Assembly: GCA_023485845.1 (NCBI GenBank)
Contig: JAMCZE010000010.1
Location: forward strand, 20,160 to 84,159
From: Patescibacteria group bacterium
GTDB taxonomy: Bacteria > Patescibacteriota > Microgenomatia > JAMCZE01
Direction: 5' to 3'
Length of the DNA: 64,000 nt
In this document: positions 23,507-37,560 of the stretch, piece after piece
Numbering within the stretch: the stretch's first letter is position 1
Layout: each line of letters opens with the position of its first letter
Notes under the pieces: model-generated
Told to the model about the DNA's origin: nothing
Databases searched by the model: none
What the model saw: the letters and a program-made list of their open reading frames with translations, nothing else
Position numbers and translations under genes: made by a program

Positions 23507-23578
23507 AAAAAACAATTTAAAATTTACAATTTGAAATTTGAACTAAAACTTTTCAATTTGAAATATTTAATTTTCAAT
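23507..23578. repeat. ATTTGAA-type heptamer array, the left arm of a hairpin element flanking the four-helix-bundle ORF
   Basis: aaatttacaatttgaaatttgaactaaaa here is the inverse complement of a segment in 23943-23992. Confidence 0.7.
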
Positions 23579-23942
23579 CAGATTTTGTTGAATAAGCAAT
23601 TTTCCCAAATATCAGCACGAATTCCTGGGCCTCCTGATAAAGCTGTCGACACTCACCTTTAAGCTTCTCGTCATCGAGCGAGCCGCCAATCAACCTCAAC
23701 CAGTATACCGTTTCTTTTGCCTCTTTCTTACTAATAAAAATTTTATTTTGAAAATCCTTTTTACTTGAGGCTCCGTTTGCCTCCCGATAGTTGGCCCCGA
23801 TACTCGTTCCCGATCTGACCGCCTGATCAACTAATGGAATAGTTATCGAATTTTTAAGAATTCTCTTCAAAAACTCAATTAATTTCTCCGAAAATCTCGC
23901 GGTTCTTTCTTCCAAGTCGTAATTGTTTGATGATTGAGCCAT
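23574..23942 (-). CDS. four-helix-bundle protein (the family found inside 23S rRNA intervening sequences)
   Basis: 122 aa; ...VRSGTSIGANYREA... and ...KEAKETVYWLRL... are hallmarks of this family. Confidence 0.7.
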   Translation of the reverse strand: MAQSSNNYDLEERTARFSEKLIEFLKRILKNSITIPLVDQAVRSGTSIGANYREANGASSKKDFQNKIFISKKEAKETVYWLRLIGGSLDDEKLKGECRQLYQEAQEFVLIFGKIAYSTKSD

Positions 23943-23992
23943 TTCAAATTTTATATTTAGTTCAAATTGTAAATTTCAAATTTCAAATTAAT
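23943..23992. repeat. TTCAAAT-type heptamer array (right arm, inverse of the left arm)
   Basis: Read directly. Confidence 0.7.
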
Positions 23993-25688
23993 CCTGGGCG
24001 ACTCTAAGGACTTCCTCAATTGTGGTGACGCCTTCCAGGGCTTTTAGGTAACCATCTTGTTTCATGGTGATCATCCCTTCTTCCACTGCTAGCTTGGCCA
24101 CCGAGCCGGCGTCGGCATGGGACAAAATCAGTTTAGCAATTTTGTCCGACACCGGCAAAACTTCAAAAATTCCCACCCGGCCTAAAAATCCGGAATCGGC
24201 GCATTCCTTGCAGCCTTTGCCCCGATAGAGAGTGACTTTGTCCCCGTGATACATGTCTCCCAAAACGTTTTTAATATCTGCCGTCATAATTTCCGGTGGG
24301 GAATATTCTTCCTTGCAGTGCGGGCAAATCTTGCGCAAAATCCGTTGGCCCACCACGGCATTTAAAGAACTGGCTAAAAGAAACGGTTCGGCGCCCAAAT
24401 CCAAAAGGCGGGGAATGGCCCCGGCACTGTCGCTAGTGTGCAGGGTGGAAAAAACGAGATGGCCAGTGAGGGCCGCCTGAATAGCTAAATCGGTGGTTTC
24501 CTTGTCCCGGATTTCTCCCACCAGAATCACGTTGGGGTCCTGGCGCAAAAAAGAACGCAGTCCGGTGGCAAAGGTCAGCCCCGCCGCCGGATTAATCTGA
24601 ACCTGGTTGACGCCAGCGATTTGGTATTCCACCGGGTCCTCGATTGTCACGGTGTTCACCTTGGTGGAATTAATTTTAGACAGGACCGCGTAAAGGGTGG
24701 TGGTTTTACCCGACCCGGTCGGGCCGCAAACAATAATAATCCCGTGGGGGCGCAAAATGGAAATCTCCAAATTTTTCAGGGCCACACCGCGAAGGCCTAA
24801 CTCATCCAGCGTCGGCACGCCGCCGCTTTTGGGCAGAAGGCGCAAGACCACTTTCTCGCCATAAACCGTGGGCAAGGTGGACACCCGGACGTCCACTTCA
24901 CTGTCACCGGATTTATAGTTAAACCGGCCGTCCTGCGGCATCCGTCGTTCGTCAATTTTTAAATTAGACATGATTTTAATTCGGGAAACCAGAGCGTCAT
25001 GAATCCGCTTAGGCAATTCCAGCTTCTCGTAAAGAATGCCGTCGATCCGGTAGCGCACCCGGGTGTGGTCTTCCAGCGGCTCAATGTGAATGTCCGAGGC
25101 CCGGGACTTAATGGCAAAATCAAAAAGGGACGAGGCAATTTTGGCCACCGGGGCGTCGCGGATAATGTCCTCTTTGGCCGGACTACTGGTTGTCAATGAT
25201 GATTCGGGCTCTTTTTTTTCTTCTTCCAGGGCAGCTGACACCTCGGTGGTGAGCACCTGGCTGTATTTATCAGTGATGGCATTTTTAATCTCTGCGGCCG
25301 GGGCAATAAAGGGCCGCACCTTTTTGCCGGTCTTTTTTTCTAAAAAGGAGATAACCACCAAATCCAGCGGGTCGGCCATCGCCACTGAGAGACTATCAGC
25401 CGTCTTATCCAGCTCGAACGGGAGCACGTTATAGCGCTCCGCCACCGGCCGGGTGACCAAATTCAAAACTTCCAGCAAAATCACTTTATTAGCCAGATCG
25501 ATATAGGGGATGCCGTAAAGCTTGGACCGGGCCTGGGCAATCTGCATATCGGTGGCAAAGCCATGGTCAGAGAGAATCTGATCCACGGTTTTGCCGGAGT
25601 TCACCGCTTCCAGCTTCACTAAACCAAGCTGATCCGCCGTGATCACTTTGTCGGCTGCCAGAATGTCTTCCAGGGCAGTGGCATTCAT
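23988..25688 (-). CDS. pilB: type IV pilus assembly ATPase PilB (GspE family)
   Basis: 566 aa; GPTGSGKTTT Walker A, CxxC tetracysteine motif, N-terminal GspII domain. Confidence 0.85.
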   Translation of the reverse strand: MNATALEDILAADKVITADQLGLVKLEAVNSGKTVDQILSDHGFATDMQIAQARSKLYGIPYIDLANKVILLEVLNLVTRPVAERYNVLPFELDKTADSLSVAMADPLDLVVISFLEKKTGKKVRPFIAPAAEIKNAITDKYSQVLTTEVSAALEEEKKEPESSLTTSSPAKEDIIRDAPVAKIASSLFDFAIKSRASDIHIEPLEDHTRVRYRIDGILYEKLELPKRIHDALVSRIKIMSNLKIDERRMPQDGRFNYKSGDSEVDVRVSTLPTVYGEKVVLRLLPKSGGVPTLDELGLRGVALKNLEISILRPHGIIIVCGPTGSGKTTTLYAVLSKINSTKVNTVTIEDPVEYQIAGVNQVQINPAAGLTFATGLRSFLRQDPNVILVGEIRDKETTDLAIQAALTGHLVFSTLHTSDSAGAIPRLLDLGAEPFLLASSLNAVVGQRILRKICPHCKEEYSPPEIMTADIKNVLGDMYHGDKVTLYRGKGCKECADSGFLGRVGIFEVLPVSDKIAKLILSHADAGSVAKLAVEEGMITMKQDGYLKALEGVTTIEEVLRVAQD

Positions 25689-26897: not shown

Positions 26898-27074
26898 CTA
26901 TTTCCCCAGTTTTTCGTTTTCCTTGTGCTCTGTGTGTTTGCGGCAGTGGCGGCAATATTTGGAGAGGGTTATCTTCTCCTTGTTTTCCAGCTTATTCTTG
27001 GAAGTCACGTAATTGCGGCTCCCACAAACGGAGCAAACTAAACCAAACCTGATAACCGCACCTGCTTTTGCCAT
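26898..27074 (-). CDS. rpmG: 50S ribosomal protein L33
   Basis: [52 protein letters not shown], with the CxxC...CxxC zinc ribbon of L33. Confidence 0.8.
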
Positions 27075-27095
27075 AATCAGATTATAGCGGAAATT

Positions 27096-27114
27096 CTTGT
27101 CTAAGACAAGAACT
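27096..27114. promoter_or_regulatory. perfect 9-1-9 palindrome ttcttgtct-a-agacaagaa in the divergent rpmG/mntA promoter region (operator candidate)
   Basis: Read directly. Confidence 0.3.
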
Positions 27115-27164
27115 CCTTGTCCTTGTCTTGGCAATTGTGATATGCTTTAATATATAAGAAATAT

Positions 27165-27461
27165 ATGTCCAAAAATCTGCAGCAAATAAAAAAAACCATT
27201 GGCGATAACATTTCTCCGCTGCGAGACCAATTTGGTGTCCAAAAATTGGGAGTCTTCGGCTCCTTCACCCGCAATGAGCAAACTGACCTTAGCGACGTCG
27301 ACATTCTCGTAGAATTTTCCCGGACCCCAAGCCTGTTTAGATTCATTGATTTGGAACAAACTTTAACGAGCTTGGTTGGGCGGAAAGTTGATCTAGTGAC
27401 CAAAAATGCGCTAAAGCCTTCAATTAAAAATGACATCTTAAACGAGGTTGTTTATGTCTAA
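27165..27461 (+). CDS. mntA: MntA-type minimal nucleotidyltransferase (antitoxin of the HepT/MntA pair)
   Basis: GVFGSFTRNEQTDLSDVDILVEF (GS...DxD) motif; 8-nt overlap with the downstream HEPN gene. Confidence 0.75.
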   Translation: MSKNLQQIKKTIGDNISPLRDQFGVQKLGVFGSFTRNEQTDLSDVDILVEFSRTPSLFRFIDLEQTLTSLVGRKVDLVTKNALKPSIKNDILNEVVYV

Positions 27462-27807
27462 ACGAGACCCAAAACTTTACCTTCAGGATATTTCCGACGC
27501 TATTTCGAAAATTGAGGCCTTTACATCGGGCGTGTCCTACGATAACTTCGTTCGCGACGAAGAAAAAATGGATGCTATCATTCGAAACCTGGAGGTAATT
27601 GGCGAAGCAGCTAAAAATGTCCCCCCGGAAATAAGAGAAAAATATCCGGAAATTCCTTGGGAAAAAATGACCAGCACTAGGAATAAAGTTCTGCACGAGT
27701 ATTTTGGCATTGACATGGAGATTCTTTGGGAGACAATTCAAGAGGACATCCCATCCCTAAAAGTAAAACTTGATAACATTCCCGGATTAGCCAGGAAACT
27801 AATTTAA
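27454..27807 (+). CDS. hepT: HepT (DUF86 HEPN) toxin
   Basis: Rx4HxY motif RNKVLHEY near the C-terminus. Confidence 0.75.
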   Translation: MSKRDPKLYLQDISDAISKIEAFTSGVSYDNFVRDEEKMDAIIRNLEVIGEAAKNVPPEIREKYPEIPWEKMTSTRNKVLHEYFGIDMEILWETIQEDIPSLKVKLDNIPGLARKLI

Positions 27808-27837
27808 TCCCACTACTTTTAATTAAGTTTTAATGAA

Positions 27838-28206
27838 AAAAGATGGCGCTTTTATTGTTCTCTTTAAGGATAATACCCGGCAGGAAGTTTTTTTGGTTCG
27901 CCGGTCAGACATTCCCATCCCCGTATGACTTATTTATTCGAGGGTAGGGTTGTCTCCGGAAAGTTCCGCCCAGAATTTCCCGGCTGTCTGGGAAAGTGGT
28001 TTTCTATAGCCAGCCTCCCCGCCGACATCGTCCCACGAACTAAGACCAAAATCTTTGATGTTATCAATCATCGTTCAAGCGCTCCGTTCCAAAAAACAAT
28101 TCAGGAAACCAGTTTCGCCTTAAACTTTCATATTTTCCTTCGCCATCCCCACCAAGCAAGCAAGTTTCTTCTCTCCTGTTGGCTAAAATCCCACCTTACT
28201 GGATAA
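27838..28206 (+). pseudogene. possible degenerate/frameshifted NUDIX hydrolase remnant
   Basis: The first frame gives MKKDGAFIVLFKDNTRQEVFLVRRSDIPIPV* (NUDIX N-terminus-like); the next frame has PEFPGCLGKW, resembling WEFPGGKVE; no intact REx2EE box. Confidence 0.3.
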
Positions 28207-28224
28207 GTGAAGAAAAGCAGTCGG

Positions 28225-28260
28225 GTTGGGGAGCTTCAAACGCCACAAAAGTGATATAAT
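28225..28260 (+). promoter_or_regulatory. extended -10 promoter (TGaTATAAT) for the NTase-NDK operon
   Basis: gtgatataat at 28251-28260, 12 nt upstream of the ATG at 28273. Confidence 0.4.
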
Positions 28261-28272
28261 GAGCTATAGGAT

Positions 28273-29514
28273 ATGGCCCTACGCAATCAAGAACTCTTTA
28301 ATTTTGATAGTGACATCCAAAAAACTAGTGATTTTGTCGCAATAGCTGCGGAGACATCTGGAACAATTGCCATTCTTAAAGGTGGTGCCGTCCGTGATCA
28401 ACTATGGAACTACTATCACGGAACAGATTTCAGACCGAAAGACCTAGACTTTTTTGTCGTCTCGAATATCCACTTGGTTCATCGCCAACTGCAAGACAAG
28501 GGCTTTAACCTGGTCGAAAGAAGAAAACGGAAGGGCACCCCAGTTTTCAAATACAAAAGTCCTTTATCTGGAACGGACTTTGAATTAGGGACGCTCATTG
28601 GCAGACCAAAAAAATATAGCCAAAGGGATTCATTACAAGATTTATTGTACATTGACGCAGAAAGCACAGATCTAACAATTGACGCACTATCGTTAACGTT
28701 AAGACCCAGCAAATATTCTTGGGACGAGAGCGAAGTAAATGACCCAATCGGAGCAATGCGGGATATTAAAAATGGTGAAATAAAAACACCCCATCCGGCT
28801 ACATTTTTTAGGGCACCCGACGCAATGTTAAAAGCGGTGCGGCTTGCTTCCCAATTGGATGCAACATTACCAATTGAGACATTGGCTAGATTATCAGAAG
28901 CATGCAGCTTAGTTCCGAAAGTACCTTTTAAGCTTATTTATAAAGAGGCACATAGAATTGTAGAATTTGGGGGAACTGACATTTCCCAAGAGGTGCTCCA
29001 TGGCACAGGAATAGTTGACGCCCTGTTTCCGGGCCGAACGCTTGATGCCGCCGATTTATTTAAGCAATGGTTTATAACTGATGCCCCAGACTACACGATT
29101 GTGATGCTAAAACCGGACGGAGTTGAGAAACAGTTGCAAATTGAGGTCATCAAGGGGCTGCAAGAGTTAGGACTAACATTGGCAGCAAGAAAAAGATTAA
29201 AACTGGAGGTTCCGGACATAGATAAAATCTACACAAATGTTAGAAATGAATGGCTCATACCGAAAATCCAGGCGCATCTTACATCGGGCGAGAGCGAGGC
29301 AATGATTTTTTTGGGAGATGGCTCGATACAAATAGCCAGAAAATTTATTGGAGCTACGGCGTTAGGTGAAAGACAAGCAGGTGGGCTGCGTGGTAAATAC
29401 TCCAATGATTTTATTAAAAATATCGCGCACTCCCCGGACAGTCAGGAAGAACTAAACAGAACGGCAAAGGTCTTATTCCCAACTTTACCAATAGCAAACC
29501 AAGATGCCGAATGA
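28273..29514 (+). CDS. fusion protein: class II CCA/poly(A) polymerase-type nucleotidyltransferase head domain + C-terminal nucleoside-diphosphate kinase domain
   Basis: N-terminal GGAVRDQLW...KDLDFFVV (GGxVRD...DxD) and RDSLQDLL...DLTIDAL (RRD-FTINAL-like motif B). C-terminal TIVMLKPDGVE... and NIAHSPDS (the NDK catalytic His in the NxxHxSD context). Confidence 0.7.
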   Translation: MALRNQELFNFDSDIQKTSDFVAIAAETSGTIAILKGGAVRDQLWNYYHGTDFRPKDLDFFVVSNIHLVHRQLQDKGFNLVERRKRKGTPVFKYKSPLSGTDFELGTLIGRPKKYSQRDSLQDLLYIDAESTDLTIDALSLTLRPSKYSWDESEVNDPIGAMRDIKNGEIKTPHPATFFRAPDAMLKAVRLASQLDATLPIETLARLSEACSLVPKVPFKLIYKEAHRIVEFGGTDISQEVLHGTGIVDALFPGRTLDAADLFKQWFITDAPDYTIVMLKPDGVEKQLQIEVIKGLQELGLTLAARKRLKLEVPDIDKIYTNVRNEWLIPKIQAHLTSGESEAMIFLGDGSIQIARKFIGATALGERQAGGLRGKYSNDFIKNIAHSPDSQEELNRTAKVLFPTLPIANQDAE

Positions 29515-30445
29515 AGTAGTTACTATTTTAATAGTAACCAGCAATTCTCTCCCTTATCTAGAGTTAACTGTTAGATCAATCGGGGAAAATACAAAAATTC
29601 CCTACAAATTACTTGTTGTCGACAATGGATCAGCTTCTGATACAAAGTTGTATTTGCAAAAAAATAATATTCCCTATCTAAGAAACCCCAAAAATGTTGG
29701 CTACATCAAAGCGCAGTGGCAAGGATTCAGAAAAATAACAACCAAATATGTTTGTTCGTGTAATGATGATATCATCGTCACTGAAAATTGGCTAACTAAA
29801 TTACTAGAAATTATTAAGACAGACAAAAGAGTAAAAATCGTTGCCCCGATAAAATGGAGCTCTCGAATGATCTATCCCTATGACAAGAGACGCAACTGCC
29901 GACAGGTTTGGGAAGAGATAAAATTGAAGTCCGATGGTAAAGACCTAAATAAATTAATCGATAAATTTACTTTGGGAAAGAGGCTTGAGATTTTTTCCGA
30001 AGACCTAAAACGAATTAATGGACTTCGGAACGTTTTTGTAGAATCACCTCCGGATTTTGTCCCGGGATTTTGTTTTCTGACGGAGAAAAAATTTTGGGAT
30101 AGGCACGGCGGGTTTGTTAATACAGATTTTAAAATATATGGGACAGAGGATGCTGAACGGTGTTGGCGTTTAGGAATCCTGGGGTACAAGATAATCAAAA
30201 CCCCCAGTGTTTACGTTCACCATTTTGAAGGAGGGTCTGTTGGATTAAACAAAGTACCTACAAACAAAGTATTAATCTATAATAATAGGATTCTGCTTAA
30301 AAAGATGGGGAAATACTTCTGGAATTGGCTGGAAAAGGAACAAACAATAAAACCACTTGGGGAAATCATAAAAGACCACTGGTTCGTTGGTGAATTGCTT
30401 AAGAATTCAGGGCATGATAACATACCTTATGAGCCCAGTAATTAA
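29504..30445 (+). CDS. family 2 glycosyltransferase
   Basis: ILIVTSNSLPYL...LLVVDNGSASD and a downstream DDD-type acidic motif; overlaps the previous gene by 11 nt. Confidence 0.8.
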   Translation: MPNEVVTILIVTSNSLPYLELTVRSIGENTKIPYKLLVVDNGSASDTKLYLQKNNIPYLRNPKNVGYIKAQWQGFRKITTKYVCSCNDDIIVTENWLTKLLEIIKTDKRVKIVAPIKWSSRMIYPYDKRRNCRQVWEEIKLKSDGKDLNKLIDKFTLGKRLEIFSEDLKRINGLRNVFVESPPDFVPGFCFLTEKKFWDRHGGFVNTDFKIYGTEDAERCWRLGILGYKIIKTPSVYVHHFEGGSVGLNKVPTNKVLIYNNRILLKKMGKYFWNWLEKEQTIKPLGEIIKDHWFVGELLKNSGHDNIPYEPSN

Positions 30446-31082
30446 AAAGTGCTTACCAATATTGGATAAAGCCTTCAGGGAATCGAACGAGTTGGCAGGT
30501 GGCATGAACTATCGCTATCTCCATGGTCTAAGAACAATGCTTGCCTGTGAACAGATTATTAATTCCCCAGAACTTCGAAACAAAAAAATAGACAGGGAGT
30601 CACTGTTTATTGCTGCACTATTTCATGATATTGGCAAGGTAATTCATATCGAACAGGATGGGACGCTTCAGGGAGACAGATCAGGTGATGCTATTTCTCA
30701 CGAGGAAATGGGCGCAAGGATTCTTAAAGATTACATAGGAAATCTGCTGTCGGAAAAGCAGGTCGAGAAGATCGCAAACATGATTCGTAACCAGCATGAT
30801 CCCAAACCGGATGATTATGAGATTAAAGTCCTCAGTGATGCCGACATATTGGATTCAATCGGATTAATAAATGTCTGGCGGATGTTCACTTACTCCGGTA
30901 AAAAGTCCCGATCACTTGAGGAAACCCTGGACTATTATAAGAGTACAAGTGGGGATAAAACCCGCCAAGAGAAAATTTATTTTTCTTTTACTAAGAGGGT
31001 CGCCAACGACCGGAGAAGTCGTTTGAAAAAGTTTATCAAAGAGTTTATAAAAGAGTATAAATCTAAAGACCTAGGGGTATGA
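30429..31082 (+). CDS. HD-domain phosphohydrolase
   Basis: LFHDIGK (the H...HD motif) and downstream D...D; 17-nt overlap with the GT2 gene. Confidence 0.75.
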   Translation: MSPVIKKCLPILDKAFRESNELAGGMNYRYLHGLRTMLACEQIINSPELRNKKIDRESLFIAALFHDIGKVIHIEQDGTLQGDRSGDAISHEEMGARILKDYIGNLLSEKQVEKIANMIRNQHDPKPDDYEIKVLSDADILDSIGLINVWRMFTYSGKKSRSLEETLDYYKSTSGDKTRQEKIYFSFTKRVANDRRSRLKKFIKEFIKEYKSKDLGV

Positions 31083-32260
31083 AAGTTGTCCTTCTTCTGT
31101 TTAACATGCCCCTATCAAAACCCTGTGGAAGTGCCCGTTTCACAGTCCAAGTTGCAAATAAATTAACAGACTTGGGCCATGACGTGACGGTGATAGCTAA
31201 CACAGACGCCGACAACACAAAATATGATTTCCGGTATGTGCAGGTCAATACTCCACCATACGGAAGCTGGAAAAGCTGCCTGACGAATCCAGACAGTTTT
31301 CTGGAAACGACGCATAAATACGCCCAGACCTTGTTTGACCTGCAGGTTAAATATGGGTTTGACATTTTGCATGTCCAACACCTCCTGTTCTCAACACTTG
31401 TAGCAACAATATATAAAGACATACATTGCAGGCCGTTTGTCGCTACCTGTCATGGAACAGAAACTTTCGAGACGGGAAATAATACTAAGATGAAAGGCTA
31501 CTTTCGCTATGCAGCTAACGCCGACTTCATTACTGCCGACAGCAACTCAATCGTTGGTGACGTTAGAAAGTTCGTAAAATACCCGGCTTCAAAAATCGCA
31601 GTCATTAACACGGCTGTGGATGTTAACAAATTTAAATTTATTAAATCGACTAGGCGCGCAATTCGCAATAGGCTGGGGTTTAGCACAAATGACAAAGTAA
31701 TTCTATTTGCCGGAAGGTTAGTTAAAGAAAAGGGGGTTCTCGAAATTCCAATTATCTTTAAAGAATTAATAAAACCAAACAAGAACATAAAATTGCTAAT
31801 TGTCGGTGATGGGCCAGAAAAGAAACAGCTGCTTAGTAATCTCCACGGGCTCAAGGTGCCACACTCTTTGTTTAGGCTAACCGGTTTCATTTCTCAGGAT
31901 TTAATGCCTGATTATTATATGGCCGGAGACATCTTTTTGATGCCATCCCTTTGGAATGAACCGTTTGCAACTAGCGCACTGGAAGCAATGGCTTGCAAGT
32001 GCCCGGTCATCGCTTATGACAATGGCGGAATTGCGCATGCCCTAAAAGATAACGGGTATAAATGGCTTGTATGCAGACGGGGAAATAAAGCAGAGCTTAT
32101 TAACAAAACAACACAGCTATTAACAGACAAAGGGAGACTAAGCGGTTATCAAAAATCATTAAGAGCTTTTGTCCAAAATAATTACACCTGGGATATAAGC
32201 GTTGCTAAGCTAATTAAAATCTACGAGGAATGCATAGCTAAAACCAAACATGAATATTAA
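31079..32260 (+). CDS. family 4 (GT-B fold) glycosyltransferase
   Basis: GT4 architecture, with the EPFATSALEAMACKCPVIA motif (the E-x7-E region). Confidence 0.8.
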   Translation: MKVVLLLFNMPLSKPCGSARFTVQVANKLTDLGHDVTVIANTDADNTKYDFRYVQVNTPPYGSWKSCLTNPDSFLETTHKYAQTLFDLQVKYGFDILHVQHLLFSTLVATIYKDIHCRPFVATCHGTETFETGNNTKMKGYFRYAANADFITADSNSIVGDVRKFVKYPASKIAVINTAVDVNKFKFIKSTRRAIRNRLGFSTNDKVILFAGRLVKEKGVLEIPIIFKELIKPNKNIKLLIVGDGPEKKQLLSNLHGLKVPHSLFRLTGFISQDLMPDYYMAGDIFLMPSLWNEPFATSALEAMACKCPVIAYDNGGIAHALKDNGYKWLVCRRGNKAELINKTTQLLTDKGRLSGYQKSLRAFVQNNYTWDISVAKLIKIYEECIAKTKHEY

Positions 32261-33179
32261 ATATAAAATTCAGTCATGCGAAAGAATAATCTCATTTCAA
32301 ACGCATGATAATGATGTTATCAATTATTTGTCCAACGACCCACTGCCATTAAATCATATTCCATGCTATAAAATTTCGCTGGGAAAATCCGCAAGTGATT
32401 TTTCTTTCGTCCATAAATTTGGTGATAAATCCAGTCTGGTGTGTAATCTTCAAAAATCGGAGGTTGTGCTGACGGCTGCAAATAAAATTCCCGGAGGGCA
32501 ATTTGTGTTTGCATTTTTGCCAATTTTTGAACGGCTATATGAGTCAAGAGGGCTATATGGTCTCCATGCGGGATTAGTAATCCTAAATGGATGTGCCGTA
32601 TTTCTTATAGGAGACACAAAAGCTGGTAAGTCGATAATTTCGGCAAAGCTACATTACGATTTTGGCGCGGATTTCGTGACTGACGAGAGAAGTATTATCA
32701 GTACTGCAGACAGTCAAATTTTCGCCGGCTCAAAAATCCTCTCCCTAAGAGAGAGTGCCATTAAAGCTGCTGATATTAAAGACATTGAAAAGTATCGGCT
32801 TTCAGACAGCAACAGCACAAGTAAAAACTACTACAAGCCTAAATCCAATCTTAGTCTCCCAATAAAGATTGAAGGGGCCCTGTTTATCTTCCCCCATTTT
32901 GGAAATACCGAGCTGACAACCGAGATACCGAGCGATTTTGTTCTAACTTATATGCTGTACGAGAACATTACCGCTACTATACGTTCATGCATATCAATAT
33001 TTGTGCCTGAATCAGTAGGAATGCCGTCAATGGACAATGATGCCCTTTCTACAAGACGAGCTCATGACATAAACAAACTCCTATCTAGGATTCCACATAA
33101 ATGTTTCGACATCACTGGTAGTCTAGACGCAATATGCAGCAAGATTTACAAAGAGGCAAATTTACAAAATTTTTCTTGA
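32250..33179 (+). CDS. HPr kinase/phosphorylase C-terminal-domain-like P-loop protein (HprK-related kinase)
   Basis: GLHAGLVILNGCAVFLIGDTKAGKSIISAKLHYDFGADFVTDE resembles the HprK C-domain P-loop (GvLi.G.sG.GKSe.aL.L...G..lv.DD). Confidence 0.55.
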   Translation: MNIKYKIQSCERIISFQTHDNDVINYLSNDPLPLNHIPCYKISLGKSASDFSFVHKFGDKSSLVCNLQKSEVVLTAANKIPGGQFVFAFLPIFERLYESRGLYGLHAGLVILNGCAVFLIGDTKAGKSIISAKLHYDFGADFVTDERSIISTADSQIFAGSKILSLRESAIKAADIKDIEKYRLSDSNSTSKNYYKPKSNLSLPIKIEGALFIFPHFGNTELTTEIPSDFVLTYMLYENITATIRSCISIFVPESVGMPSMDNDALSTRRAHDINKLLSRIPHKCFDITGSLDAICSKIYKEANLQNFS

Positions 33180-33195
33180 CAATCCGGACCCAATA

Positions 33196-33300
33196 ATGAA
33201 CGACACGATTGCCCCTGCCAATCTCATTCTCGCCGTGACTGTTGCCTTCATTGGTCTTATTGTCAACCGAAATATTGAAGCACAAAAAAGAACTCTCTAG
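33196..33300 (+). CDS. small single-TM peptide (34 aa) distal in the operon
   Basis: MNDTIAPANLILAVTVAFIGLIVNRNIEAQKRTL; it lies between the HprK-like gene and the terminator. Missed by the ORF track. Confidence 0.3.
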   Translation: MNDTIAPANLILAVTVAFIGLIVNRNIEAQKRTL

Positions 33301-33365
33301 CAAATATTGCCTTTCTCGACACCCCCCCTTCCTGATATACTTTGTTCCGGCGAACGGGGGGGTTA

Positions 33366-33396
33366 CCCCGGGTTTATCTCGGGGCGGGGATTTTTA
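33366..33396 (+). terminator. intrinsic terminator candidate (GC hairpin ccccg/cgggg followed by a T5 tract)
   Basis: Read directly; it is preceded by a C7...G7 hairpin at 33322-33362. Confidence 0.35.
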
Positions 33397-33420
33397 GTTT
33401 TTTTGTGATATAATTTCTCC

Positions 33421-33819
33421 ATGGACCAGAAAACAGTCGTAAAGAATTGGCTTGATGGTGCAAATGAGGCTTGGAAGGCAATATCGAAATTTGCCGGTTC
33501 CAAAGAGGGACATCTTGCCTTGTTTTTTCTTCATTTATCATTAGAAAAAACCCTAAAAGGGTTGTATTTAGCGAAATTTAATGAACCGGCGCCTTTTACA
33601 CACGATCTGTTACAATTGACCGACAAGATTGGACTTAAAACAACGGACGTTGAGAAGAAACAATTAGCAGAAATTTCCACTTTTAACATTGCTGCCAGAT
33701 ATGACGATTACAAGTATCGCCTCCAAGAAAGGGCGACTTTTGAATTCGTCAAAGAGTGGACGGCAATCGGTGAAAATTTGAGAAACAAGTTTATAAAAGA
33801 AATGGAAAAATATGAATGA
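33421..33819 (+). CDS. HEPN-domain protein (PF05168-like)
   Basis: HLSLEKTLKGLYLAK...FTHDLLQL...IAARY pattern; 8-nt overlap with the downstream NTase gene. Confidence 0.7.
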   Translation: MDQKTVVKNWLDGANEAWKAISKFAGSKEGHLALFFLHLSLEKTLKGLYLAKFNEPAPFTHDLLQLTDKIGLKTTDVEKKQLAEISTFNIAARYDDYKYRLQERATFEFVKEWTAIGENLRNKFIKEMEKYE

Positions 33820-34120
33820 CGCTTTAAACAAAGCCAAAAAATTTGTTGTCCAGTTAAGAAATGATGGGGTGGAAGTTGACTCTGCTTTTTTGTTTGGTTC
33901 TTATGCCAAGGGAACACAGCACAAGGACAGTGATATTGATGTTTGCATTGTTTCTCAAAGATTTGGGAAGGATTATATCGAAGAAATGGTGGACTTGCGG
34001 ATGAAAGCTTTAAAAATTGATATTCGTATTGAACCAATTCCGTTAACCCCGAGGGATCTGGCTGACCCCTACAGTTCGCTTTCAACAGAAATCCGCAATA
34101 CCGGTTTGGCCATTACCTAA
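33812..34120 (+). CDS. minimal nucleotidyltransferase (the MNT partner of the HEPN protein)
   Basis: LFGSYAKGTQHKDSDIDVCIV motif. Confidence 0.75.
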   Translation: MNDALNKAKKFVVQLRNDGVEVDSAFLFGSYAKGTQHKDSDIDVCIVSQRFGKDYIEEMVDLRMKALKIDIRIEPIPLTPRDLADPYSSLSTEIRNTGLAIT

Positions 34121-34191
34121 GAAATCCCCAGCCAGAGGAAAGCTTGTCTGTGATAACCAAGCGCAAAAAAGAGCTCCCCAATAAATTTTTC

Positions 34192-34221
34192 TTGACAATC
34201 CCAACCTAATCTTGATATACT
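34192..34221 (+). promoter_or_regulatory. sigma70-like promoter (TTGACA, 18 nt spacer, TATACT); a copy of the module tttttcttgacaatcc...gatatactttg
   Basis: The same 16-18-bp strings occur at 33168-33185 and 33331-33343. Confidence 0.45.
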
Positions 34222-34239
34222 TTGAGGCAGTAGCAAATT

Positions 34240-34530
34240 ATGCCTGCGGCAGAATATCACATCAAACCATTGGCCCAAGATCTGCGAGAAATTGTTAGCG
34301 GAATCCTGTTTATAACGCTGCCTGGGCTGCTTGCTGTTACCTGGGCAATTTCTCATCAGCCCGTTAAAATTTCTCAACAGCCGCTGGCGATTCAATCCGG
34401 ACCGATTTGTGGTCAGATCCAAGGAGAACCACCGGGAAAATTCCTGAAAACCGTGGAAATCCAAAGTGATGGCACATCCCGAACCACTCTCACCGAGCTC
34501 CATGAACCCTGCTCGGCAAATCCGCACTAA
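34240..34530 (+). CDS. hypothetical protein
   Basis: 96-aa ORF directly downstream of the promoter above; the overlapping antisense ORF at 34117-34644 was judged spurious. Confidence 0.35.
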   Translation: MPAAEYHIKPLAQDLREIVSGILFITLPGLLAVTWAISHQPVKISQQPLAIQSGPICGQIQGEPPGKFLKTVEIQSDGTSRTTLTELHEPCSANPH

Positions 34531-34586
34531 TTTTGACCTGTGTGAGATAATAAAACTGTTAATTGACAAAGGGAAAATAAAACTAT

Positions 34587-35399
34587 ATGCTGAAAACCGA
34601 AATGGCAGATTCAAGTCAGCAGGAACAACAAGGAAATGGCCCAATTACCCAGCCAGAAAATCTTGGAATATCAAGAAGGGGATTTATCAAGGATATGGCT
34701 GCTTTGGGCGCATTGGTGGGAATGGGAGCAGTGGCCGGAACAAAAATTGCAGAAGCCCAATCTGATCAAACCTCGAATACCATAGTGAAAAAACCTGAGA
34801 CTGGGCCAACTGGAGGCGGGGAAGTAATTAATTTTGATGTTTCAGCTCGTGAAGGTGGCCAACTAGATTTCTCCGGAGCTAACGCCGGTGATGTTATGCA
34901 AACCGGATTGGGAACTCTTTTGGAACCAATTAACGCCCGCGAAGGAAAATACAAAATAAAACCGTGTTCTGATGCTCTACTGGAGGCAGCAGTTTCAAAG
35001 GCTTTACGTTTCTCAATAGCACCAGTTTCTGATAATGTCCAGGTGATAGTTGTTGACTCTATTAAAAAATCAAGACAAGTTAACGGAAATGAAGAAGTTA
35101 CAGCGGAAGGGAATCATGTCATAGTGACACAAAATAGCGGCCAGGGTTGGGCAATTACCGAATCAGAACCCTGGGTAAATCTTCCTTCTTCCAAAAACGA
35201 TCAATTAAAAAAGGAGGGCTATATGCCAGTTGATGGCCCAACCAGCACTATTGACCTGATAAGAGCCAATAAAAATAACCCAACTCTTATTGGGTTTAAA
35301 ACTGCATTTATTCCTAGTACTCCCGATGGATCTATCAGGTTTTCAACCACACTAATGACCCTTAATTCTAGTACACATCAGCTCGAAGCCGCCCCGTAA
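34587..35399 (+). CDS. Tat-signal secreted hypothetical protein
   Basis: ISRRGFIKDMAALGALVGMGAVAG, a twin-arginine signal. Confidence 0.55.
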   Translation: MLKTEMADSSQQEQQGNGPITQPENLGISRRGFIKDMAALGALVGMGAVAGTKIAEAQSDQTSNTIVKKPETGPTGGGEVINFDVSAREGGQLDFSGANAGDVMQTGLGTLLEPINAREGKYKIKPCSDALLEAAVSKALRFSIAPVSDNVQVIVVDSIKKSRQVNGNEEVTAEGNHVIVTQNSGQGWAITESEPWVNLPSSKNDQLKKEGYMPVDGPTSTIDLIRANKNNPTLIGFKTAFIPSTPDGSIRFSTTLMTLNSSTHQLEAAP

Positions 35400-35441: not shown

Positions 35442-37559
35442 GTGAAGCAATTACTTCTTTGGATAGCGTTTACTTCGTTTACCCTGTTAGGGTTAACATT
35501 CACTAACCCTAAGATTATCTTGGCTGGTTGCGCCTGGAAAATGACTGGTGATCCTCACTGCGAAAACTGTGCAAATGGGACAACAGGTGGCTTTTGTACC
35601 GTTAATGGCAGTACCGCCTTTGTGGGAGCTTATTGTGTGGGAGGTAATCCTTATAACTCTTGCTATTGGGGAGAATTCGACTGTAGCTCTCAGACTGAGG
35701 CCCAATCCCAATGTAATGCTGGAGGGGGAGGGACAACTGGGCCATCTTGTCCTGGTGCCTCGCCGGTATCCTGTGATAACAGCACCTGTGCCACAACGGG
35801 GGGGTGTAATTGTAACGACTACGACACTCAAGCATCCTGCCTAGGACAGCCGCCTTATTCCTGGCACAGCACCTGCCAATGGAACGGCAGTATCTGCACC
35901 GGAAAATACTGTTGCGTGGAACATCCAGATGTGGGCAACGGTGCCGGGCAGGGGTGCGGGTATTATAATCAGGTTCGGGCCACCTGCGTTGGGGCTGGTT
36001 GTCACTGGACTCCGGCGCCAAATTCCTGCGCGCCGGGATCATCCTGCGCCGGCGGCAGTTGCACCACCGAGTGCGGGGACACCGCTTCCTGCACTGTCAC
36101 CCCTTACACACCCATTTACCCTTTCGGCACCATTTCCGAGCTTAATCCCACTTTCACCTGGAACGTGGTAGTGCCGGCAGACTATAACGGCACGAACTAC
36201 TACACCAATTTAGCTGTCTATGCCGGCAGCAATTGCCCCGGGAGTCCGATCTTTTTTAACCAACCGGCCATGTCCGACACGTCAAAAAGTTGGTCCGTGA
36301 TTTCACCAAACCAATATCTTTCACCAAATACGCAATACTCCTGGAACTTATACGAAGGCTATAACGGTGTTGGACATCCTGAAAGCACTTCGGCATGTTT
36401 GAATTTCCAGACAGCAGCCTCCTGCACGGTATCTCTCTCTGCCAGCCCCACCACGATTGTTAACAGCGGCACAGCTACGGCCACCGTTTATCCCACCGGC
36501 AACGCCACTGTCACCGCTGTCAATTGGAATTTTAATCCCACCGGGGTGGTGAGCACCCCCGCTCCCAGCACCACCCCCACCGGCAGCAGTGTGCCGGCTT
36601 CGTTTAGTCCCAACTCCGGCGGCGATCTTCTCTCCGGCCTGGTTGCTTATTGGAAACTGGACGGCGGCAACGTGGGGGACAACAGCGTTCCCGCTCAGAA
36701 CTCCGTTTCCGGAACATACGGCCCGGCTAGCGGAACCACCGTCATCGGGCCTTCGTCCAGCCCAGCCAGCAAGATCGGCAATGCCCGGTCTTTTAACGGC
36801 ACCAGCGACATTATCACCGCTGCCAACCCCCAAGCGTTATCCGGATCCCGCACAATTGCTGCCTGGGTCTATCCCACTAACACCAGTAGCAAGGCCAACC
36901 CGGTGCTTGTTGGCGGCACTGCCAGCTTAAATAATGGCGATCTATTTGGTGTCTCCGGCTCCGGGGCGGTGGGCTGTGCCGGAGCCGGAAAAGTTTATTT
37001 TGATCATTGGGGCTACACCTGCAATTTATCCACCGGCACGGTGCCACTTAACACCTGGAGCCTCATCATGATGACCTTTGACAACACCACCAAAAACATT
37101 AATTTCTATATTAATAATCAACCGGCCGGGACAATTCTCGGCTCCACCGGCGCTGCCACTTACAACGCCAACCAAATATGGCTTGGTGGCAACCCCTACA
37201 GTGGCAGCAGCACCACCGGTTTATCCTTCGCCGGCAGCATTGATGAAATAGGAATTTGGAACCGAGTATTGTCCAGCGGAGAAATCCAGGACCTCTACCA
37301 CGGCGGGGCGGGCAACACCTACCAGCCGGCAGCCACGGTTTGGACGGCCAGCTCAACGTTGACAAACCAAAACAGCGGCACGACCACCACCAGTTTCACC
37401 GCCACGGCCACCCTGGACACCGGCGGCAGCTGCACCTCCAGCCCGGTTGCCCTTAGCACTGTCGGCACCTTTTTTCAGACCTACGGGGGAGACGTGATTG
37501 GTAAGGGAACCGTTAACGACAGCCACTTGCCATCCGGTGCTTACATTTCGGGAAATTAA
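35442..37559 (+). CDS. secreted Cys-rich protein with a C-terminal LamG/concanavalin-like lectin domain
   Basis: Signal peptide; more than 40 Cys in the first 270 aa; C-terminal LVAYWKLDG...NARSFNG...IAAWVYP...SIDEIGIWNRVLSSGEI (LamG-like). Confidence 0.7.
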   Translation: MKQLLLWIAFTSFTLLGLTFTNPKIILAGCAWKMTGDPHCENCANGTTGGFCTVNGSTAFVGAYCVGGNPYNSCYWGEFDCSSQTEAQSQCNAGGGGTTGPSCPGASPVSCDNSTCATTGGCNCNDYDTQASCLGQPPYSWHSTCQWNGSICTGKYCCVEHPDVGNGAGQGCGYYNQVRATCVGAGCHWTPAPNSCAPGSSCAGGSCTTECGDTASCTVTPYTPIYPFGTISELNPTFTWNVVVPADYNGTNYYTNLAVYAGSNCPGSPIFFNQPAMSDTSKSWSVISPNQYLSPNTQYSWNLYEGYNGVGHPESTSACLNFQTAASCTVSLSASPTTIVNSGTATATVYPTGNATVTAVNWNFNPTGVVSTPAPSTTPTGSSVPASFSPNSGGDLLSGLVAYWKLDGGNVGDNSVPAQNSVSGTYGPASGTTVIGPSSSPASKIGNARSFNGTSDIITAANPQALSGSRTIAAWVYPTNTSSKANPVLVGGTASLNNGDLFGVSGSGAVGCAGAGKVYFDHWGYTCNLSTGTVPLNTWSLIMMTFDNTTKNINFYINNQPAGTILGSTGAATYNANQIWLGGNPYSGSSTTGLSFAGSIDEIGIWNRVLSSGEIQDLYHGGAGNTYQPAATVWTASSTLTNQNSGTTTTSFTATATLDTGGSCTSSPVALSTVGTFFQTYGGDVIGKGTVNDSHLPSGAYISGN

Positions 37560-37560
37560 T

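Follow-up and report, generated by a model that had tools for sequence, protein, structure and literature searches.

A recurring cassette of soluble nucleotide- and sugar-handling enzymes in a low-GC island of a Patescibacteria group bacterium

Paeninodin-type lasso peptides and linear polyphosphorylated peptides (LPPs), whose gene clusters often sit in glycosyltransferase-rich loci, are characteristically tailored by an HprK-like kinase paired with an NTP transferase. PsmN is required to place hexoses on phosphoserine, nucleotidylation followed by the action of a separate glycosyltransferase being a possible route. On the small-molecule side, BshA, MshA, sucrose-phosphate synthase (SPS) and GlgM all take carboxylate- or phosphate-bearing small acceptors. 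For the combination of genes reported here, located in a 64,000-nucleotide stretch of Patescibacteria DNA (the window), we, like the preliminary description of this DNA, found no described system. The core of the locus is a five-gene operon:

28273–29514, plus strand: NTase-NDK fusion (PolyA_pol head, 1.1e-6; NDK, 6.2e-24)
29504–30445, plus strand: soluble GT2 (GT-A) glycosyltransferase (Pfam Glycos_transf_2, 1.3e-18)
30429–31082, plus strand: HD-domain phosphohydrolase of the YpgQ/YedJ type (Pfam HD, 4.5e-13)
31079–32260, plus strand: GT4 (GT-B, retaining) glycosyltransferase, BshA/MshA-like (Pfam Glycos_transf_1, 9.2e-33)
32250–33179, plus strand: HprK/PEPCK-fold P-loop kinase-like protein

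Consecutive genes overlap by 11, 17, 4 and 11 nt, in line with the 4–17-nt overlaps noted previously; all nine genes that the preliminary description had named are present, and each of its domain calls is correct. Family-level homologies of the cassette enzymes lie below curated cut-offs (the GT4, for example, matches NCBIfam BshA at 5.5e-38, under the cut-off). The fusion protein joins a class II (CCA-adding/poly(A) polymerase type) NTase head and neck (about residues 1–270), for which the nearest structures are CCA- and A-adding enzymes, to an NDK domain (residues 274–404); the NTase lacks the tRNA-holding body and tail domains, its EDxxR templating motif is not conserved, and the fusion architecture is very rare (10 clusters among 5.8 billion proteins). 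The GT2 family profile matches the chondroitin synthase K4CP domain (1.8e-18) as well as ppGalNAc-T and GalT1, with invariant NDD (DxD) and YGTEDxERCWR motifs. The HD protein, whose start at the ATG at 30429 is backed by homologue alignment, is the best-conserved protein of the cassette (56–65% identity; invariant residues H32, H66-D67, H91 and D137/D139), and its family profile matches 3djb (1.2e-10), 3b57, 2pq7, 3dto and 5dqv (1.4e-5), the last of which we take to be YpgQ. The GT4 family profile, with a conserved EX7E motif, matches BshA structures (8e-30), MshA (9e-21) and then PimB', SPS and GlgM, lipid-linked PglA reaching merely 1e-14. For the kinase, PEPCK is the top full-length structural match, while its wider family matches HprK_rel_B in 40 of 62 members, HprK_rel_A in 38 of 62, and also ScmC, families linked to peptide maturation. 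As the catalytic motifs are invariant, the cassette enzymes look active. No convincing hydrophobic segments were found in the cassette proteins, the sole peak above the usual threshold being core β-strands of the kinase, and all six, including the sixth protein described below, appear soluble.

The five genes are strictly linked elsewhere: the order NTase-NDK, GT2, HD, GT4 and HprK/PEPCK-fold kinase is identical in seven or more further metagenome lineages of Patescibacteria, whose flanks are unrelated. Order and overlaps are shared by loci L001-3/L045, L005-7/L042, L008, L009, L043/L044, L010 and L011, and a partial cassette is found in L004 and L046. Because order and overlaps are kept despite unrelated flanks, there is good support for treating the five central genes as a genuine, conserved functional unit, a mobile and Patescibacteria-specific cassette of soluble enzymes only that reappears as one block in a small number of related bacteria from groundwater. 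The operon noted previously is, however, incomplete. A NodU-type carbamoyltransferase gene (nearest relative NodU, 4e-54) lies downstream of the kinase in 7/7 lineages with visible downstream sequence, whereas none was found anywhere in the window; that the full cassette has six genes, with this O-carbamoyltransferase last, is well supported. In L047-rooted neighbour-joining trees of the kinase and the GT4, the window is sister to L005 within the carbamoyltransferase-bearing clade, which suggests that the window copy has lost its sixth gene; in the corresponding GT2 tree the window is basal. The position of the missing gene is taken by the first of two features:

33196–33300, plus strand: 34-aa hydrophobic ORF (by translation), within a duplicated promoter-like segment
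33321–33405, plus strand: G+C-rich hairpins and then a T-run, resembling a terminator at the operon end (-41 kcal/mol, z=-2.2)

The transmembrane peptide and terminator of the preliminary description do exist as a hydrophobic ORF and a U-tract hairpin region, but the peptide is not a conserved component: no homologue was found in the other cassette loci.

The deep conserved core comprises NDK, GT4, kinase and GT2, and accessory genes of the cassette loci have a nucleotide theme in common. L047, which lacks both NTase and HD, has a standalone NDK, two Nudix genes and a CYTH gene; L012 has a dNK-type kinase adjoining GT4, plus HD and CYTH; L010 has HD_3 and a weak CYTH; L001 has a nucleotidase-like HAD; and the distant relative L051 has a CTP synthase. 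Such neighbours could merely reflect NDP-sugar supply in nucleotide-salvaging organisms. Some cassette loci carry B12-radical SAM and methyltransferase add-ons of natural-product type; no riboswitch was found.

The AT-rich island proposed previously is borne out by base composition: GC content is 0.41 at ~27.0–35.4 kb versus 0.50 in the rest of the window (p=6e-6). In 1-kb windows the mean is 0.412 inside (n=8) and 0.497 outside (n=54; Mann-Whitney p=6e-6), with 0/54 outside windows as low as the island mean. In 500-nt windows, GC is 0.35–0.44 from about 26.75 to 35.5 kb with both flanks at 0.50–0.60, and in 2-kb windows 28–34 kb is the minimum of the entire 64 kb (0.396–0.410). GC3 is 0.36–0.48 in island genes and 0.52–0.63 in flanking genes, and the cassette has a GC content of 0.33–0.40 in every genome carrying it, against the window background of 0.50. 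Given the GC dip, the low GC3 and the uniformly low GC of the cassette, it is well supported that the region is compositionally foreign and that the core (28273–33179) is a horizontally acquired cassette copy. This core has a toxin–antitoxin (TA) pair on each side and, on the right, a repeated segment:

27165–27461, plus strand: MntA-type minimal nucleotidyltransferase, antitoxin of a type VII HEPN/MNT pair (Pfam NTP_transf_2, 2.4e-15; Polbeta, 7.4e-13)
27448–27807, plus strand: HepT-type HEPN RNase toxin (Pfam HepT-like, 2.9e-30)
33421–33819, plus strand: second HEPN-domain protein, PF05168 type (Pfam HEPN, 2.4e-13)
33812–34120, plus strand: second minimal nucleotidyltransferase, MNT (Pfam NTP_transf_2, 4.6e-13)
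34159–34228, plus strand: promoter-like segment, TTGACA, 18 nt, TATACT (direct repeats D2 and D4)

MntA carries a GS...DxD motif and scores 49 bits against NCBIfam MntA_antitoxin (cut-off 60); HepT, which likely starts at the ATG at 27454, has an Rx4H motif (RNKVLH), and the two genes overlap by 14 (or 8) nt. The pair beside the distant cassette L047 is 50% (MntA) and 60% (HepT) identical. The second pair overlaps by 8 nt; its HEPN protein lacks the canonical Rx4-6H motif as read from the sequence, and its MNT reaches 38.9 bits with NCBIfam MntA, under the cut-off. The promoter-like segment, the region's top promoter match (11/12), is a diverged copy of 33278–33345 and 33167–33199, and its repetition around the second HEPN/MNT block suggests that this block was inserted or recombined in. 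While the 64 kb contain no other HEPN/MNT pairs and both of these abut the cassette, only a minority of cassette loci have such pairs and most have none; it is therefore well supported that they are separate TA modules at the island edges, facultative passengers rather than cassette parts. The flanking pairs of the preliminary description are thus present, but do not belong to the conserved unit.

Our best reading, which we advance tentatively, is that the cassette would encode a cytoplasmic, self-contained pathway to a small di-glycoside on an anionic phosphorylated acceptor, which may itself be a nucleotide or sugar-phosphate. The P-loop kinase would phosphorylate an acceptor hydroxyl; the retaining GT4, whose gene always adjoins that of the kinase, would add the first sugar from an NDP-sugar, and the inverting GT2 the second. 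The YpgQ-type HD hydrolase would take off a phosphate, pyrophosphate or nucleotide handle, a step for which the mycothiol, sucrose and trehalose pathways likewise have a dedicated phosphatase. The NDK would turn NDP released by the glycosyltransferases, or some non-adenine NDP, back into NTP and pass it to the fused class II NTase, which, stripped of its tRNA-binding body and tail, would nucleotidylate a pathway intermediate at a hydroxyl or phosphate. In complete cassettes only, the NodU-like enzyme would O-carbamoylate a sugar; the window's product would be without this cap. A small-molecule product is favoured because the GT4 profile ranks BshA, MshA, SPS and GlgM above PglA, because the carbamoyltransferase is nearest NodU and the HD protein nearest YpgQ/YedJ nucleotide hydrolases, because PEPCK, the kinase's closest full-length match, is a small-molecule kinase, and because none of the six-gene cassettes was found to contain a precursor peptide, an RRE, a protease or an exporter. 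Nucleotide-sugar-dependent glycosylation of a peptide or other acceptor, one of the functions suggested previously, is the direction that the evidence favours. To our knowledge, class II nucleotidyltransferases have only RNA 3'-OH acceptors, and a small-molecule role would therefore be unprecedented. Secreted natural products usually come with genes for export or resistance; that the cassette has neither also counts against a small-molecule product.

The main rival, which we consider possible if rather unlikely, follows the logic of PsmK/PsmN (pseudomycoidin) and LppK/LppN (LPPs): the HprK-like kinase would phosphorylate Ser in a peptide or protein whose gene lies elsewhere, the NDK-fed NTase would nucleotidylate the phosphoserine or otherwise enable sugar attachment, and the glycan would be extended by GT4 and GT2 and capped by the carbamoyltransferase, with excess phosphates trimmed by HD. 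Characterised members of the HprK superfamily, PEPCK excepted, phosphorylate Ser on proteins or peptides, and the kinase's wider family matches best to HprK_rel_A/B and ScmC. The literature pairing of such kinases with NTP transferases in lasso peptides and LPPs points the same way, as do L051, which joins two HprK-like kinases, a Pol-beta NTase, radical SAM/SPASM, GT4, an ABC exporter and a C39 peptidase, the YcaO/dehydrogenase cluster 5 kb upstream in L004, and the resemblance of GT2 to ppGalNAc-T and GalT1. The kinase affinities, the radical SAM/SPASM enzyme, C39 peptidase and ABC exporter of L051, and the protein O-glycosyltransferases among solved GT2 relatives also speak against a small-molecule product. 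A peptide or protein substrate is, however, at odds with the lack of a conserved short ORF, RRE (PqqD), leader peptidase, cyclase or exporter in the six-gene cassettes and their neighbours; the window's 34-aa ORF has no counterpart elsewhere, the NTase is class II (PolyA_pol), unlike the PsmN-type transferase, and GT4, carbamoyltransferase and HD are each nearest to small-molecule enzymes.

An ordinary cell-envelope glycopolymer or protein-glycan locus, with glycosyltransferases at the membrane periphery acting on a lipid- or wall-linked glycan and the other enzymes supplying or decorating donor sugars, is improbable. Envelope genes do occur nearby: Mur ligase genes (window and L005), MurB and DUF218/ElyC-like genes (L005), LytR_C (L001), PMT/YfhO-like membrane proteins 7–10 kb upstream in the window, an ABC-2 type exporter with GT28-like, GT4 and GT2 genes in L051, and four glycosyltransferases with a hexapeptide acetyltransferase in L047. 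However, flanks are wholly different among genomes, and the window's Mur genes are no orthologues of those in L005; the six-gene cassettes and their flanks lack an initiating phosphoglycosyl transferase, flippase, polymerase and exporter, and all six proteins appear soluble. We know of no polysaccharide locus with a CCA-type NTase-NDK, YpgQ-type HD or HprK-fold kinase as components.

RNA (tRNA) 3'-end repair or modification tied to HEPN RNases, also suggested previously, is very unlikely: HepT would clip, HD heal and the NDK-fed CCA-like NTase rebuild the end, with the glycosyltransferases then modifying the RNA against re-cleavage. A HEPN toxin of this family removes the last four nucleotides of some tRNAs, as a passage of PMC10435456 states with reference to Songailiene 2020; the NTase head and neck are structurally nearest CCA-/A-adding enzymes, both HEPN/MNT pairs of the 64 kb abut the cassette, as do the related pair at L047 and a HEPN fragment at L044, and tRNA genes adjoin the cassette in L001 and L043/L044. 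At L047, the one distant locus with a closely related MntA/HepT pair, NTase and HD are both missing, so that the presence of TA and NTase/HD is uncorrelated. Conversely, no HEPN/MNT was found within the visible 2–10 kb of most NTase-bearing cassettes (L001, L005, L010 and L004). Nor does the NTase retain a tRNA-holding body and tail or a conserved EDxxR, the HD is of YpgQ type and unfused, whereas in the canonical CCA-adding enzymes of these phyla (~520 aa) the HD is a fused domain, the second HEPN has no Rx4-6H motif, and the deep core is glyco-centred.

Least probable of all is an anti-phage or conflict module making a nucleotide-derived signal or toxin, or glycosylating invader molecules, in a TA-marked defence island: distribution is patchy and mobile, composition foreign, TA modules lie at the island edges, HD and NTase are frequent defence domains and there is a weak Pfam GT4-conflict match (28.4 bits in the window; unmarked in L011 and L051), but nothing in the core looks like a known defence protein (no PADLOC matches for NTase-NDK, GT2, GT4 or kinase, and only generic Cas3/Cas10 HD ones for HD), the cassette lacks the architecture with sensor, STAND/NTPase or effector from which GT4-conflict domains were described, defence genes do not adjoin it at other loci, and viral contigs, phages and plasmids yielded no match to it.

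Three further features lie outside the core:

34240–35399, plus strand: 96-aa membrane ORF and 270-aa TAT-signal protein, the island's low-GC3 right-hand tail
27833–28100, plus strand: possible frameshifted Nudix hydrolase remnant without a Nudix box (joined fragments, weak Pfam NUDIX only, E 0.17)
27094–27135, strand not assigned: perfect 9-bp-arm palindrome TTCTTGTCT A AGACAAGAA and TTGTC(T/C) repeats (direct sequence reading)

The GC dip runs ~1.2 kb past the right boundary given in the preliminary description (34.2 kb) and takes in the two right-tail genes (GC3 0.454 for the 96-aa ORF and 0.325 for the 270-aa protein; TAT signal 6.5e-5), for which no homologues in other cassette loci and no connection to the cassette were found. 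The putative Nudix remnant, which over a short stretch also matches the Nudix protein of L047, is a possible decayed hydrolase gene, on weak evidence. The palindrome and repeats lie immediately 5' of mntA and may constitute an operator/promoter region as well as the left boundary of the low-GC island; promoter-resembling hexamers are found at 27049–27077.

The AT-rich island claimed in the preliminary description is borne out by base composition: the 500-nt GC profile falls to 0.35-0.44 over approximately 26.75-35.5 kb, as compared to 0.50-0.60 around it, and the lowest GC of the 64-kb window at 2-kb resolution is located at 28-34 kb. The mean GC of 1-kb windows is 0.412 inside the island and 0.497 outside (Mann-Whitney p = 6e-6), with none of the outside windows as low as the mean of the island interior, and third-position GC is 0.36-0.48 for the island genes versus 0.52-0.63 for those that flank it (pilus, Mur ligase and LamG). 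The surroundings themselves are usual for Patescibacteria, with type IV pilus genes, a Mur ligase gene and genes for large surface proteins with LamG domains. The genes that had been listed from the sequence alone were all found in their expected places, and profile searches, including Pfam and NCBIfam, returned the same domain assignment for every one of them. The proposed start/stop overlaps within the operon (locus tags M1484_03355 to M1484_03375 in the source MAG at NCBI) measure 11, 17, 4 and 11 nt, with the 17-nt value assuming that HD starts at ATG 30429, as backed by homologue alignment. The features are as follows:

27165-27807, first toxin-antitoxin pair, MntA/HepT
28273-33179, core cassette: NTase-NDK fusion, GT2, HD, GT4 and HprK/PEPCK-fold kinase
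33167-33199, promoter-like segment (TTGACA...TATACT), first of three diverged copies
33196-33300, 34-aa ORF
33278-33345, promoter-like segment, second copy
33421-34120, second toxin-antitoxin pair, HEPN/MNT
34159-34228, promoter-like segment, third copy

The five overlapping genes do form a linked unit, as had been proposed: the same order recurs in other Patescibacteria lineages. The NTase-NDK fusion is very rare, with only 10 related protein clusters among 5.8 billion; the kinase-like protein has 11. Contig look-up showed that gene order and overlapping frames are kept in L001-3/L045, L005-7/L042, L008, L009, L043/L044, L010 and L011, and two further copies, L004 and L046, are cut off by contig ends. 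Between the window and the other copies the order of the five genes is identical, the reading frames overlap and protein identity is 43-69%. The nearest relatives, P0012 and P0010, are on contigs of 2 kb. The flanks of the cassette are unrelated between lineages and include UvrC/Obg, Mur ligase/MurB, a YcaO cluster and tRNA genes. Synteny between the window and L005 through Mur genes was considered and rejected, the two Mur genes being non-homologous. The GC content of the cassette is 0.33-0.40 in all genomes; since the genome backgrounds are mostly 0.32-0.44 and that of the window is 0.50, this fits recent import from a lower-GC relative. Furthermore, tRNA genes (His; Trp) lie approximately 150-600 nt from the cassette end in two lineages, which fits insertion at tRNA loci:

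L001, 17200-17273, tRNA gene
L044, 6977-7048, tRNA gene
L043, 4351-4422, tRNA gene

Upstream of the cassette in the window and six other loci we detected no riboswitch or other known RNA, only tRNA genes. A phage or plasmid origin was considered and rejected: the cassette was found on no viral contigs, searches of plasmid and phage DNA and proteins matched only generic phage tRNA nucleotidyltransferases, and a PHROGs search gave generic matches only.

The NTase shows the fold of the class II head and neck and carries motif A (GGxVRD...DxD); it has neither the body nor the tail domain, which bind the tRNA/RNA primer, and the EDxxR nucleotide-templating motif is not conserved. The NDK domain fused to it has the NDK fold, the catalytic His and the nucleotide-binding K/Y/R/T/R/N residues. 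As other Patescibacteria (L039, L023, L036, L027 and L022; ORFs of ~520-540 aa) encode canonical CCA-adding enzymes to which HD is fused as the C-terminal domain, the NTase-NDK protein is, judging by sequence, an extra specialised paralogue and not the housekeeping CCA enzyme. The kinase has the HprK/PEPCK fold and scores 22.7 bits against HprK_rel_A (cut-off 200); a full HMMER scan places it in a wider family whose 495 representatives (E<=1e-3) are almost all ~300 aa long. When 62 family members were tested, matches to HprK_rel_B (40/62) and HprK_rel_A (38/62), all weak, were accompanied by ScmC (10) and PEPCK (4). The HD family profile leads to the YpgQ/YedJ group (3djb, 1e-10; 5dqv, 1.4e-5), with OxsA a faint match. 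GT4 is nearest to BshA (8e-30), then to MshA, PimB', sucrose-phosphate synthase and GlgM, scoring 130.9 bits with the BshA model (cut-off 273.7) and 78 with that of MshA (cut-off 462), and GT2 is nearest to the chondroitin synthase domain, followed by ppGalNAc-T and GalT1. None of the five proteins has a convincing hydrophobic segment, the one above-threshold peak corresponding to the core beta-strands of the kinase.

In all seven lineages with visible downstream sequence, the kinase gene is directly followed by that of a carbamoyltransferase of 559-566 aa, with NodU as best match (4e-54). No carbamoyltransferase was found anywhere in the 64-kb window by tblastn with three carbamoyltransferase queries; its position after the kinase is occupied by the 34-aa ORF, a terminator-like structure and the second HEPN/MNT pair. 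In neighbour-joining trees of the kinase and GT4, rooted on the distant cassette L047 and carrying no support values, the window is sister to L005 inside the carbamoyltransferase-bearing clade; the GT2 tree, built and rooted in the same way, instead renders the window copy basal. Given the kinase and GT4 nesting, the simplest reading of the sequences is that the window cassette lost its carbamoyltransferase. The copies of the promoter-like segment bracket the HEPN/MNT block and surround the 34-aa ORF, the first of them overlapping the kinase stop codon, and this triplication has the look of a scar left by recombination or insertion. The 34-aa ORF was rejected as a conserved precursor peptide, having no homologue at any other cassette locus, and we detected no other conserved short ORF around the cassettes.

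The preliminary description also had HEPN/MNT pairs bracketing the operon. While a pair is indeed present at each end – the only two in the 64 kb, both adjoining the cassette – they are probably not its components: no HEPN/MNT genes were found within the visible 2-10 kb at L001, L005, L010 and L004. The first pair has the MNT motif GVFGSF...DVDILV, the HepT Rx4H motif RNKVLH and gene overlaps of 14/8 nt; it reaches the Pfam gathering scores and falls below the NCBIfam equivalog cut-off of 60 bits (MntA 49, HepT 42.3). The second HEPN carries a PF05168 domain (2.4e-13), and its sequence shows no Rx4-6H motif. Both pairs share domains, sizes and gene overlap with type VII MntA/HepT modules, and the first also the catalytic motifs; both score under the NCBIfam type VII equivalog cut-offs, and here they are probably neighbours and not components of the cassette. 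A link is favoured by the position of the only two pairs of the window and by two other loci: L047 encodes MntA and HepT with 50% and 60% identity to those of the window, and at L044 a HEPN fragment lies 100 nt before the cassette. Against a link, L047 encodes neither a CCA-type NTase nor HD. Since four loci show no pair in the visible sequence and L047 has one without the NTase, the association is facultative and independent of the presence of the NTase, the pattern expected of addiction modules at the edges of mobile islands. Just upstream of mntA, at 27094-27135 and exactly where the island had been taken to start, there is a perfect palindrome with 9-bp arms (TTCTTGTCTAAGACAAGAA) plus TTGTC(T/C) repeats, which may be a toxin-antitoxin operator. 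On the other side of the pair, at 27833-28100, a short ORF begins Nudix-like (MKKDGAFIVLFKDNTRQEVFLVRRSD...) and stops, with a second fragment running on in a different frame: probably a decayed Nudix gene without the Nudix box. The flanks of L047 carry intact Nudix genes.

We compared the cassette with phosphorylated RiPP clusters, low-molecular-weight thiol, Nod-factor and CCA-adding systems, known defence systems and polysaccharide loci. It qualifies as a member of none of them, while taking recognisable enzymes from each. Searches of the literature turned up neither the NTase-NDK fusion nor this combination of genes, in agreement with the initial impression that no such system had been described, and we rate the locus as a biosynthetic cassette for glyco-tailoring, its NTase-NDK component being unprecedented.

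What does it make? In the mycothiol, sucrose, trehalose and maltose-1-phosphate pathways, a GT4-type enzyme glycosylates a small phosphorylated or carboxylated acceptor, and a dedicated phosphatase afterwards strips the phosphate. By analogy, we tentatively favour, as plausible though short of probable, a cytoplasmic-type pathway in which GT4-style glycosylation of such an acceptor is followed by phosphate removal. The kinase would produce the acceptor, GT4 and GT2 would add two sugars, and HD would strip the handle; in the complete cassettes the NodU-like enzyme would carbamoylate a sugar. The NDK would convert by-product NDP to NTP, supplying the fused NTase, which would nucleotidylate an intermediate. 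Similarly to the BshA/MshA pathways, the nearest relatives of the GT4 are BshA, MshA, SPS and GlgM, a kinase and a phosphohydrolase are encoded alongside, and the enzymes appear soluble; unlike these pathways, the cassette adds GT2, NTase-NDK and the carbamoyltransferase, its phosphohydrolase is HD and not HAD, and no BshB/C- or MshB/C/D-like gene (deacetylase, Cys ligase, acetyltransferase) was found in any locus. A further comparison is with the O-carbamoyltransferases NodU/TobZ/CmcH of Nod-factor and antibiotic pathways: carbamoylation of a sugar hydroxyl is suggested by the sixth gene of the complete cassette being closest to NodU and placed after two glycosyltransferases; as distinct from NodU systems, the carbamoyltransferase of the relatives scores 184 bits against the NodU cut-off of 1000 and is missing from the window, and NodA/B/C domains and aminoglycoside core enzymes were not found. 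Given the companions NDK, CTP synthase, dNK, Nudix, CYTH, HD_3 and nucleotidase-like HAD, a possibility is that the acceptor itself is a nucleotide or nucleoside, although these companions could equally support NDP-sugar supply.

The same chemistry might act on a peptide or protein serine; this is the main alternative, which we regard as unlikely, if worth serious consideration. Pairs of HprK-like kinase and NTP transferase tailor paeninodin-type lasso peptides and linear polyphosphorylated peptides: PsmK/PsmN (pseudomycoidin, a paeninodin-type lasso) and LppK/LppN are kinase/NTase pairs leading to phosphate-linked glycosylation, PsmN is needed to put hexoses on phosphoserine, and linear polyphosphorylated peptides have recently been described (PMC6993621, PMC9266682, PMC13381572). 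The cassette resembles them in combining an HprK-fold kinase with a Pol-beta-superfamily NTase amid many glycosyltransferases. However, its NTase, which is fused to NDK, has a head and neck of the class II CCA/PAP type and is no PsmN-like transferase, its fixed members include two glycosyltransferases, HD and (elsewhere) the carbamoyltransferase, and no precursor gene, RRE (PqqD-like), leader peptidase, cyclase or exporter was found in the window cassette and seven other lineages, nor in any of the six-gene cassettes. An envelope glycan locus is improbable: an initiating phosphoglycosyl transferase, flippase/ABC exporter and polymerase are absent from the cassette and immediate flanks at all six-gene loci, and the apparent solubility of all cassette proteins also argues against a polysaccharide or teichoic-acid locus.

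A more speculative and similarly improbable reading has a class II NTase, stripped of its tRNA-binding domains and fused to NDK, working in a new sequential logic with a kinase and two glycosyltransferases; it would make a new class of nucleotide-linked carbamoylated glycoside natural products of ultra-small episymbionts or, more exotically, rebuild and glycosylate RNA 3' ends clipped by the adjacent HepT RNases. Either version, if true, would give class II NTases their first substrate class outside the canonical ones. RNA-end repair coupled to HEPN is very doubtful. The likeness to a class II CCA enzyme with C-terminal HD extends to the head/neck fold, motifs A, B (partial), C and E-like, and the presence of HD in the operon; in contrast to that enzyme, NDK stands in place of body and tail, EDxxR is not conserved, HD is a separate YpgQ-type protein, and canonical ~520-aa CCA+HD enzymes exist apart in these phyla. 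Finally, a defence role is highly improbable, with PADLOC, phage and plasmid searches negative. A known defence system was rejected as PADLOC-DB 2.0 gave no match for NTase-NDK, GT2, GT4 or the kinase, only generic Cas3/Cas10 HD matches for HD, and a match to the candidate system PDC-S09 for the MNTs alone; likewise, the match to GT4-conflict is marginal, and the cassette has none of the architectures known for that family.

In Patescibacteria (CPR), with their tiny genomes, dedicated biosynthetic clusters have to our knowledge rarely been described. That several lineages have preserved such a compact, mobile set of six enzymes intact suggests that its product matters for their episymbiotic lifestyle; it could, for example, be a metabolite, signal or toxin, or a modification of a surface or peptide. 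The very rare NTase-NDK fusion makes a possible non-RNA role of a class II NTase directly accessible to experiment, and bears on how, in lasso peptides and linear polyphosphorylated peptides, an HprK-like kinase and an NTase jointly attach sugars through phosphate.

Distant relatives of the kinase and HD occur in other gene sets, in the following order:

L047, distant cassette: Nudix, GT64-like, stand-alone NDK, GT4, kinase, GT2, Nudix, GT4, acetyltransferase, MntA, HepT, CYTH
L048, kinase locus: kinase, 358-aa protein with DSDID motif, HD
L051/L052, kinase loci: Pol-beta NTase, kinase, HAD, radical SAM/SPASM, CTP synthase, second kinase, GT4; further genes: ABC-2 exporter, three more glycosyltransferases, C39 peptidase, Cys-rich small protein
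L012, 4973-8762, unclassified bacterial MAG, overlapping genes: HD, methyltransferase-like protein of 364 aa, dNK-type P-loop kinase, GT4, CYTH-like

The GT4 before the L047 kinase scores 338 bits with the cassette GT4 profile. The L051/L052 locus (L051 1-21000, and L052), with its very low GC of 0.275 and a Cys-rich secreted peptide of 85 aa, might represent a distinct cluster, as yet undescribed, for the tailoring of peptides or glycans. The genome-collection scan with the HD profile was swamped by generic HD proteins, the source genome not being among the results, and gave only two full-length distant HD homologues, L012 and L013. The HD of L012 is 34% identical to that of the cassette, and the kinase beside its GT4 is of a different, deoxynucleoside-kinase-like family; L049 and L050 are short contigs without gene context. 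In this wider context a GT4 gene always stands next to that of the kinase, with a Pol-beta-fold NTase, a phosphohydrolase (HD/HAD/Nudix) and an NTP-supply enzyme (NDK/CTP synthase) as recurring companions, and this recurrence across ~500 HprK-like relatives suggests a broader undescribed tailoring theme.

Several neighbouring genes are also of interest. Of the NTase-NDK cassettes, that of L004 diverges most. About 7 kb upstream of it, at 585-3162, genes for YcaO and a nitroreductase-type dehydrogenase form an azoline/azole RiPP-like set together with two small ORFs; an APH kinase and a histidine phosphatase are encoded between this set and the cassette. Directly after the island in the window, at normal GC, two very large secreted proteins of 705 and 1293 aa (35442-42008) combine LamG/concanavalin-like domains with Ser/Thr/Gly-rich stretches; these are typical CPR surface proteins and, conceivably, glycosylation targets. 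A second, sharper GC dip (0.34-0.42) at 23250-24000 coincides with a minus-strand gene, 23574-23942, which encodes a 122-aa protein of the '23S rRNA-intervening sequence protein' family and lies between two pilus ATPase genes.
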